The translations under genes and the position numbers were made by a program. Source: a virus (lineage: Duplodnaviria > Caudoviricetes). Taken from it: 41,771 nt of DNA. Every line of letters begins with the position of its first letter. Position 1 is the stretch's first letter. Location: IMG/VR virus record IMGVR_UViG_3300038393_000273, positions 1 to 41,771 of that record; one strand, written 5' to 3'. Below are positions 5,303-18,304 of the stretch, piece by piece. Below the pieces are notes generated by a model. It did no database searches. It was not told the DNA's origin and saw only the letters and a list, made by a program, of their open reading frames with translations.

Positions 5303-5668
5303 TTATCCGGACTGGCCCGGCACTTCGTCGCCGAATTTCGACGCCACGTAGGCGCGCATGGCGGCGATCAGCAGGGTCGGCCCACGCATTTCGTCGTATG
5401 CAGTGGTGTCGACGTAACTGCATGTTGGGTTCTTCTGCACAAAAGCGGCCCATCCGCCAGCACCGTCGGGGAAGGCAACGATGCGCTCTCGCTCGATCAT
5501 CGGCCCCGCATGCGCCCAGTGCGTAGACGGCCTGAACGGCGTTCCGCTCGCAAGCTGGAAGTAGTCCAGATTACATGGCGAGTATGACTTGATGATCTGG
5601 CCATCCGCGCCGTTTGCCTTCGCCACCCAGTAGTCCAGCACCGCACCTTCGAGTTCTGATACCTTCAT
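5303..5668 (-). CDS. NinX/DUF2591-family protein
   Basis: LEGAVLDYWVAKA, PSTHWAHAGPMIERERI and GPTLLIAAMRAYVASKFGDEV motifs. Confidence 0.75.
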   Translation of the reverse strand: MKVSELEGAVLDYWVAKANGADGQIIKSYSPCNLDYFQLASGTPFRPSTHWAHAGPMIERERIVAFPDGAGGWAAFVQKNPTCSYVDTTAYDEMRGPTLLIAAMRAYVASKFGDEVPGQSG

Positions 5669-16640: not shown

Positions 16641-16681
16641 TAAACAAGGTGTTGACACCAAATATAAACGTGGTGTTTAAT
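16641..16681 (+). promoter_or_regulatory. PL promoter and OL operators
   Basis: TTGACA(16652)-N18-TTTAAT(16676). Operators TAAACAAGGTGTTGA (16641) and TAAACGTGGTGTTTA (16665) match the OR consensus. Confidence 0.8.
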
Positions 16682-17562: not shown

Positions 17563-17660
17563 CGCGACGCCTCACCCTCGTAAGGGGTGACCACACAGAA
17601 GGGTCGATGTCAGCGCGAATGGGCTGACGCGGGATAAGCACCGACGTCCCGGCCCTTCTG

Positions 17661-17770
17661 TGTGGTGAATGCGCAGGCTGATACGCGCGTGATAGTGAGC
17701 CCGGGCACGCGATCGAGCGGACGTATCTCGAACTGGGTCAAGCCGGATATCAGCACCGGCCACCACACCA
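17661..17770 (+). ncRNA. tRNA-shaped structured RNA with 3' CCA
   Basis: Closing stem TGTGGTG/CACCACA followed by CCA, an abutting GCCGG/CCGGC arm, three further hairpins, and complementary loops GCTGAT/ATCAGC. Confidence 0.65.
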
Positions 17771-17815
17771 ATAAACCAACCGCCGGCGGCGCCGGCCAGA
17801 ACGAGGAGCAGCAGG

Positions 17816-18304
17816 ATGGAAGTCGAGAAACTGACCGGCGCACAGCTGGACTACTGGGTGGCGCGCGCCGAAGGTCGCAAGCTCGAGCAGCGCAATGGCG
17901 AATGGTTCGTTGAGAACGACGACCGCGATTGGATGTTCGAGCTGGAGTTCTACACCCCGCACAAAAGTTGGCCCAGCGCTGGATCGATCATCGAGAGCAA
18001 CAACATCCAGCTGTCGCCGCCGACGTCGCGCGTTCATCGCCATGGCGGCCCGAATGCTGGCTGGGGCCAGGCGGGCGTGTGGTCCGCGTGCACGTGGCAT
18101 CGGGGCGAGGACGGCCGCCGCTCCATCGCGCATGACGAGAAAAGTCCTCTGGTGGCCGCCATGCGCTGCTTCGTGCGGTCGAAGTTTGGCGAGCACGTGC
18201 CGGACGAGCTGCCGGGCGCCGAGCCACCGCAGGTGAACGACCTCTACTCGGCCGCGCAGCACGAGGACGCCTACGGCGATGGCCACCTGGACGGCCCGCA
18301 ATGA
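17816..18304 (+). CDS. NinX/DUF2591-family protein (paralogue of 5303..5668)
   Basis: LTGAQLDYWVARAEG and SPLVAAMRCFVRSKFGEHV motifs. Confidence 0.75.
   Translation: MEVEKLTGAQLDYWVARAEGRKLEQRNGEWFVENDDRDWMFELEFYTPHKSWPSAGSIIESNNIQLSPPTSRVHRHGGPNAGWGQAGVWSACTWHRGEDGRRSIAHDEKSPLVAAMRCFVRSKFGEHVPDELPGAEPPQVNDLYSAAQHEDAYGDGHLDGPQ

Follow-up and report, generated by a model that had tools for sequence, protein, structure and literature searches.

A tRNA-shaped RNA element with exchangeable middles and a covariation-supported kissing elbow in a lambdoid early-left operon and in phages of Proteobacteria

What is a closed, tRNA-shaped fold doing among the early-left genes of a lambdoid phage that itself carries no tRNA gene? 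The question arises from IMG/VR record IMGVR_UViG_3300038393_000273, analysed here over its whole length (41,771 nt; the window), a complete 41.8-kb lambdoid phage genome with 63.5 % G+C. A sequence-only reading had proposed that a gap of about 250 bp in the PL operon encodes a tRNA mimic, closed by stacked stems, ending in CCA and held together by a 6-bp loop-loop elbow. The gap measures 253 nt (17563-17815) and does belong to the early-left operon, its operon neighbours being a cI-like gene (15044) and the Erf (18735), exonuclease (19583) and integrase (25274) genes. The promoter scan called no sigma-70 site; a TTGACA hexamer (16652-16657), uncalled by that scan, lies between two related operator-like words (16641-16681) and is probably the early-left promoter. 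The gene following the gap (ribosome-binding site 17804-17808, ATG 17816) belongs to phrog_4389, a family of unknown function represented twice in the window: one gene (17816-18304, + strand) is immediately 3' of the RNA module, and the other (5306-5668, - strand) precedes the portal gene.

All features of the gap lie on the + strand. Directly 3' of the upstream stop codon is a predicted lead hairpin (17572-17590) common to close relatives, followed by a long hairpin with its own variable insert (module A, 17590-17666), a likely RNase III site. The tRNA-shaped module comes next, and a GC-rich hairpin (17782-17796), retained in close relatives, separates it from the ribosome-binding site of the next gene. 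Every motif named in the sequence-only reading was located where that reading had placed it. The 5' strand of an acceptor-like stem (TGTGGTG, 17661-17667) forms seven Watson-Crick pairs with CACCACA (17761-17767), the 3' strand, with CCA at 17768-17770, extending over 17761-17770. Stacked on this is a 5-bp T-position arm without TTCRA (17742-17760; GCCGG 17742-17746, CCGGC 17756-17760), whose 9-nt loop ATATCAGCA occupies 17747-17755. The D-position arm (17671-17686) comprises three pairs and then a C.A mismatch in this copy, being a 4-bp stem in the family, around an 8-nt loop (17675-17682). GCTGAT in the D loop (17677-17682) is exactly complementary to ATCAGC in the T loop (17749-17754); the core of this contact, defined by family covariation, is 17677-17680 with 17751-17754. 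Between the two arms lies an exchangeable cargo of 55 nt (17687-17741), in which a motif check recovered two hairpins, GCGTG/CACGC (17687-17710) and TCGAG/CTCGA (17713-17731).

Stacked 7+5 stems arose in 24 of 3000 dinucleotide shuffles of the gap, and the additional 6-nt loop complementarity in none, whilst the overall folding z-score was modest (-1.55). In a nested, pseudoknot-free folding model, which is unable to score the element's two pseudoknots, the full cloverleaf proposed earlier came to -30.4 kcal/mol against a minimum of -42.1, i.e. 11.7 kcal/mol higher. Acceptor and T stems formed with a probability near 1 in this model. The D arm had a probability near 0, as did both middle hairpins. 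Because of the near-zero value for the D arm, support for this arm and for the kiss comes from covariation across the family and not from the thermodynamics of this copy. A further pseudoknot had been suggested within the cargo (17696-17704 with 17733-17740); this pairing is possible, but only with a bulged G, and it is broken in locus L484. Two substitutions, at 17683 (the D-stem mismatch) and 17748 (T loop), are private to the window among the five copies with the same cargo, and the window copy may be weakened by them.

Comparison with other phages revealed a family of constant ends around swapped middles. BLAST against annotated phages matched 160 records, none covering more than 80 % of the query, and only the two ends align among the 40 of these matches that were listed. 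A 3'-end pattern occurred in at least 121 viral stretches (estimated total 330), and the strict 5'-end pattern was present in 112 of 125 3'-end matches. Pooled loci gave 155 matches with 108 distinct cores and 68 unrelated middles, or cargo classes, of 6-178 nt, and in 62 of these classes the acceptor stem had at least seven pairs. The family is spread over phages of Gamma- and Betaproteobacteria, including N4-like phages and Ackermannviridae, with members in P1, HK620, phiEt88, Magnus, D3, IME11, SOVA965, Bas80, UTI89 and one Massilia genome. P1 carries two full copies and one sibling. Members sit on the transcribed strand, either in a leader (early-left or late) or in a tRNA cluster, and same-strand tRNA genes adjoin those of phiEt88, Magnus, P1, D3, SOVA965 and Bas80. 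Three loci (L013, L026, L032) hold the 3' half of the module alone, which suggests recombination at the T arm.

Model R1 matched none of T4, T5, lambda and P22, and in the genome samples it matched 4 of 141 genomes at family level and 6 of 151 at phylum level, with the centre genome counted in each and two of the matches (G087 and G166) resembling chance. A loose 3' pattern run over the genome collection gave mostly chance matches, with the 5' end in only 3 of 123 loci; two further loci that passed the loose filter were discarded by eye. Among E. coli chromosomes searched at E 0.01, UTI89 contained two members and EC958 one weak sibling, whilst Sakai, E2348/69, Nissle, CFT073 and K-12 had no member at this threshold. 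At E 10, 951 of 5426 E. coli genomes matched, a count that includes single-end matches. Neither Rfam 15, at gathering and E-value thresholds, nor ARAGORN matched the element, so the question left by the earlier reading, whether Rfam already holds this family, is answered in the negative for Rfam 15. The family appears undescribed and its end motifs unmatched in the literature as far as the accessible texts extend; one of the unnamed candidates aligned by Fremin et al. 2023 (PMC10690425) may correspond to these ends. The accessible portion of a 2025 review of phage small RNAs (PMC12197685) contains nothing relevant to the family.

Covariation was assessed in an alignment of 60 rows (A1), comprising the classes with cargo of 26-90 nt, minus one (L100), plus three extra variants. 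Across A1, 97.9 % of cells were paired, with two-sided changes in 10 of 22 pairs; none of 500 shuffles scored as high, and slid controls were 27-54 % paired. The invariance of the T stem and the 3' acceptor strand in A1 is by construction, because rows were collected using fixed patterns for both. Independent support for these two strands, including compensatory changes in the acceptor stem, was obtained from D3, SOVA965, L308 and L309, and the D stem displayed two-sided changes at all four pairs in A1. Both checks proposed earlier, BLAST of the conserved ends and covariation, support a tRNA-shaped scaffold that is conserved around a changing middle: the two ends recur around 68 unrelated middles, and stems and central kiss pairs covary. 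We consider the element almost certainly real and structurally well supported.

For the kiss itself, single T-loop positions were forced off the majority base whilst the D loop was left unconstrained. Forcing one T-loop base away from A returned 27 loci, all of which kept the pair: ten by a double swap of CU/AG to UC/GA (in four cargo classes), three by U-A to C-G and 14 as U.G, the neighbouring pair being broken in two loci, both among the U.G group. Forced changes at two other kiss positions returned 0 loci each, so the two flanking G-C pairs represent invariance and not covariation. A fifth pair was changed in seven loci and compensated in none. The kiss supported by these sequences is therefore one of four pairs, two central and covarying and two flanking and near-invariant, not six: the Watson-Crick loop-loop contact in place of the usual elbow is upheld by its central pairs, and the two outer pairs of the 6-bp version only break. 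The 3' CCA fared worse as a family feature. Of the 68 cargo classes, 6 encode a CCA where the window has it and at most 26 do so when any of three positions is allowed, and only one of the four relatives with the window's own cargo has it.

Module A, absent from the sequence-only reading, sits 5' of the tRNA-shaped module and spans 77 nt. It closes with 14 perfect pairs (17590-17603 with 17653-17666), extending to 17 including one G.U, and as its 3' strand overlaps the 5' acceptor strand, pairing of hairpin A takes up six of the seven acceptor bases. In the predicted precursor fold, hairpin A is favoured by 3.6 kcal/mol and acceptor pair probability is 0.02 or less; this is predicted to rise to 0.99-1.0 once the 5' strand of A is removed. 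A hairpin capturing at least three acceptor bases was present in 70 of 85 distinct upstream contexts, compared with 29 % of shuffles, and missing by the same criterion in the other 15. A 24-nt lead-hairpin pattern identified 15 viral loci, all with the same two-slot layout downstream. All 15 of these same-slot relatives retain hairpin A with exchanged inserts, and what follows it is a full member in six (two identical), a divergent member in one and other closed folds in the rest. Among 33 enterobacterial A modules (37 listed, less four mis-anchored rows), the median number of outer pairs was 20.

In L486, L496, L498 and L499 the hairpin in the slot corresponding to window 17590-17666 carries a tRNA, with or without a large insert at the anticodon arm, the L496 insert being a tRNA by Rfam (44.5 bits to RF00005), and a canonical T arm lies inside many enterobacterial A inserts. 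A tmRNA-like stretch with a short tag-like frame occurs 5' of the cassette in HK620, Magnus, IME11, Bas80 and P1; such stretches (L006:3740-3830, L007:2700-2800, L292, L294, L362) have sub-threshold Rfam tmRNA scores. In the lytic phage Magnus, the non-coding tRNA region (L007:4554-4768) has a match to STnc100 (RF02076) above the gathering score.

A link between module A and RNase III comes from the dicBF operon of the K-12 Qin prophage. There, the accessible parts of two reports describe an RNase III cut that generates the 5' terminus of the 190-nt DicF species (bioRxiv 10.1101/2023.04.14.536235) and RNase III formation of the 3' end of a 72-nt DicF species (PMC5069750). Counting back from the annotated dicF 3' end, with an error of a few bases, the 190-nt cut maps to L131:5246, which is 9 nt 5' of the GTGG word and within the 3' strand of a Qin hairpin; this strand agrees with an A module at 17 of 20 bases. 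The same length arithmetic puts the 3' end of the 72-nt species at the base of a tRNA-shaped sibling module. This sibling scored 23.8 bits with model R1 locally and gave no match in the whole-genome search. The window's hairpin has the same position and shape as Qin-type A modules but shares little sequence with them. We regard RNase III gating by module A as likely, given an E. coli homologue and length arithmetic; a search for the window's host gave no match. Sibling tRNA-shaped modules with shorter loops are present before dicB in Qin (L131:5455-5585) and before tciA in P1 (L159:3189-3316). An RNase III consensus, found in 33 of the 85 contexts as a count without a control, was unconfirmed in PMC5371410 and so was not used.

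RNase P could act at a later step. According to the accessible parts of PMC10731613 and PMC5499578, its substrates need a 12-bp stem, with a 3' RCCA preferred, and C4 RNA is cut although it has no T-loop. By analogy with these needs and with the cleavage of C4, the freed module with a short leader would be a plausible RNase P substrate.

The window's 55-nt cargo recurs in four other loci, each with different upstream hairpins; in one (L492), cargo hairpin 1 is maintained by a two-sided change together with a G.U change, and within the proposed pseudoknot only the bulged base differs. One cargo is intact across P1, IME207, mEp460 and other phages, and cargoes are also exchanged between otherwise identical flanks. 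Cargoes are weakly structured overall (mean z -0.46; 2 of 60 below -2; window +0.78), and the shortest measure 6 and 12 nt. Searching the phage's own genome for antisense partners of the window's cargo gave a best complement of 11 nt, equalled or exceeded by 161 of 200 shuffles, and three complements of at least 10 nt against 6.9 expected. The P1-type array is present in 14 RNA runs from four studies, and contigs from four runs cover it; this indicates presence in RNA libraries only, not transcription, ends or strand, and the contig breaks fall at repeated words. The cargo of the sibling module is exchanged in the strain of one RNA run.

Taken together, the best explanation, in our estimate evenly poised between right and wrong, is a two-part cassette that, gated by RNase III, would release a stable tRNA-shaped RNA of about 110 nt with an exchangeable 55-nt insert. 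By sequence and folding, hairpin A holds six acceptor bases in the early-left transcript, and the tRNA shape is thus predicted to be blocked. By homology with Qin dicBF, RNase III would cut A, and the acceptor and T stems are then predicted to form. Covariation shows the D- and T-position loops pairing with each other, substituting for the tRNA elbow. RNase P would presumably remove the short leader, and 3' exonucleases would trim to the end of the stem. We think release of a stable RNA probable. In the weakest step, the frame may protect and present the cargo, which may act in trans, most plausibly as a decoy or mimic directed at host proteins that bind or cut RNA, anti-phage nucleases among them. 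Such a decoy function is a tentative and doubtful proposal. Recombination between the constant ends would exchange cargoes among phages. The fullest version, in which proteobacterial phages share a natural RNA cassette, an RNase III-gated kissing-elbow clamp able to mature and stabilize whatever is inserted and stocked by recombination with a library of anti-defence RNA decoys, is rather unlikely to be correct as a whole.

Other readings must be weighed against this one. The hairpin and frame may instead be cis-acting punctuation, marking cut sites that divide a long phage transcript and stabilize its pieces, with the middle a neutral passenger. Positions in early-left and late leaders, Qin homologues that are known processing sites, and cargoes of weak structure and as little as 6-12 nt all suit such a role. 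The module is also found, however, with only a terminator behind it: the tQ terminator is the sole feature 3' of the module within the HK620 leader, and a crude pattern detects a U-run within 60 nt 3' of the module in 13 of 68 classes. A passenger would also not be expected to persist with a compensatory change beside different A partners in four loci, or to display crossing-stem potential in 23 of 60 cargoes where 12.1 were expected, and we judge the punctuation reading rather improbable. An antisense regulator of the P1 C4 or P4 CI kind, matured by RNase P and pairing through its loops with phage or host mRNA, was among the roles first suggested. C4 and CI are indeed phage RNase P substrates in the accessible parts of PMC5499578 and PMC10731613, and DicF, a base-pairing sRNA, is reported to be released from a homologous array. 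Against this, there is no Rfam C4 match, the conserved loops are engaged in the contact between them, and the phage's own genome holds no target above chance, which removes the support for a C4/CI-like role there and makes an antisense regulator quite unlikely.

A tRNA substitute, aminoacylated or soaking up anticodon nucleases via an anticodon-like loop, would account for the 7+5 stacked stems and CCA of the window copy and for locations in tRNA clusters; a neighbouring A slot may also be occupied by a real or expanded tRNA, as in L496. Since ARAGORN and RF00005 give no match, TTCRA and a conserved anticodon arm are lacking and the CCA is mostly absent, this is very unlikely; the same absences, with that of a 7-nt anticodon loop, bear out the earlier statement that the RNA is not a decoding tRNA. 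Were the ends DNA-level boundaries or attC-like recombination sites serving cassette shuffling only, constant ends around variable middles, cargo swaps in identical flanks and the alternation of A and B modules in P1 would follow directly. Yet the G.U wobbles and the covariation of the loop-loop pseudoknot indicate that selection acts on RNA, orientation is fixed with the transcript, and the P1 array uses distinct words for the 3' strand of the tRNA-shaped module and for the 5' strand of the hairpin after it, in contrast to integron cassettes, which leaves the DNA-level reading highly unlikely. Finally, the region could be translated as ORF 17662..17913, which would have told against an RNA element. 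The 83-aa frame is open in the window but unconserved and without a PHROG match, cargo lengths are split 22/22/24 over the three frames and the core is open throughout in only 14 of 68 classes, so that translation is a practically negligible prospect. Annotated ORFs also overlie the module in P1-like phages (plp; L159:2501-2634) and in D3 (orf86), and may be false gene calls. Antitermination of the put-like kind was rejected because members sit just before terminators and in the tRNA clusters of lytic phages.

The family is present in model phages (P1, HK620, D3 and BASEL Bas79/80) and in prophages such as those of UTI89, lacks an Rfam model and is frequently masked by false ORF calls; it offers a tractable genetic route to the role of the stable RNAs that have long been known from phage tRNA regions. 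By standing in for the universal T-loop/D-loop motif, a loop-loop elbow would achieve the tRNA fold in a new way, and it would allow the requirements of RNase P and the CCA enzyme to be probed. If excised from the early transcript as a stable RNA, as seems likely, the element would be a natural carrier of small RNA cargoes. Should the cargoes prove to be decoys, RNAs that inhibit bacterial immunity could be drawn from the 68 classes, themselves from a small sample, and the frame could serve as a ready-made scaffold for expressing RNA. The cassette, if real in this full sense, would be an RNA counterpart of phage anti-defence protein islands that has gone unnoticed in P1 and HK620.

Among known systems, the closest in setting are T4 RNA C and D and T5 RNA1, RNA2 and RNA3, likewise located in phage tRNA regions and either tRNA-shaped or folded into closed multi-stem structures; the accessible part of PMC3014915 describes the T4 pair as stable RNAs of unknown roles. 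The middle is expanded in T5 RNA1 and RNA2 and in T4 RNA C, as here, but all three retain a canonical T-loop where the window's family has a Watson-Crick kiss. None of the T4 and T5 stable RNAs has the family's ends, and neither sequence nor model R1 shows homology to them. The middles here are swapped among dozens of sequences. The RNase III sites of Qin dicBF also belong to an early-left lambdoid operon and to a homologous long hairpin ending in a GTTGTGG-type word, and, as in the family, a tRNA-shaped module, the sibling preceding dicB, is present. Qin differs in that the module 3' of the hairpin falls outside the family, the sibling's loops are shorter and K-12 has no full member; the Qin hairpins feature in publications only as DicF cut sites. 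P1/P7 C4 and P4 CI, non-coding RNAs of phages as well, arise when RNase P processes a closed stem (PMC5499578 and PMC10731613, accessible parts). They have no T-loop equivalent (PMC5499578, same limit) and act by antisense pairing, in contrast to the window's element, for which no cis target above chance was found and the Rfam C4 model gave no match even at E 10.

With tRNA (RF00005) and the tRNA-like domain of tmRNA, the element shares a 7-bp acceptor and 5-bp T stem and a 4-bp D stem with an 8-nt loop, and its acceptor resembles by alignment that of phage tRNA-Asn. It differs in lacking TTCRA, a GG at the elbow position used by tRNA, an anticodon arm, a conserved CCA and G3.U70. RF00005 did not match, a 7-nt anticodon loop is absent, and no conserved anticodon arm was found across the 68 classes. 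No tmRNA was called in the window, and the tmRNA-like tag frame occurs upstream only, in some homologues. M3 RNA of phi80, a presumed RNase P substrate, was considered as a member and rejected, as M3 is annotated as an oop homologue and no member was found in phi80. Pseudo-ToxI of phage TE is a phage RNA decoy in the accessible part of PMC3475682. Mimicry of host defence RNAs, spread by recombination, may be a principle that pseudo-ToxI and Racr RNAs share with the family. As far as the accessible accounts describe them, those are bare repeats with known targets, whereas here a constant frame holds unrelated inserts and no target was identified. In engineered tRNA scaffolds, the anticodon arm is replaced by cargo and host enzymes mature an RNA with a canonical elbow. 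These are laboratory constructs, of which the family described here would be the natural counterpart.
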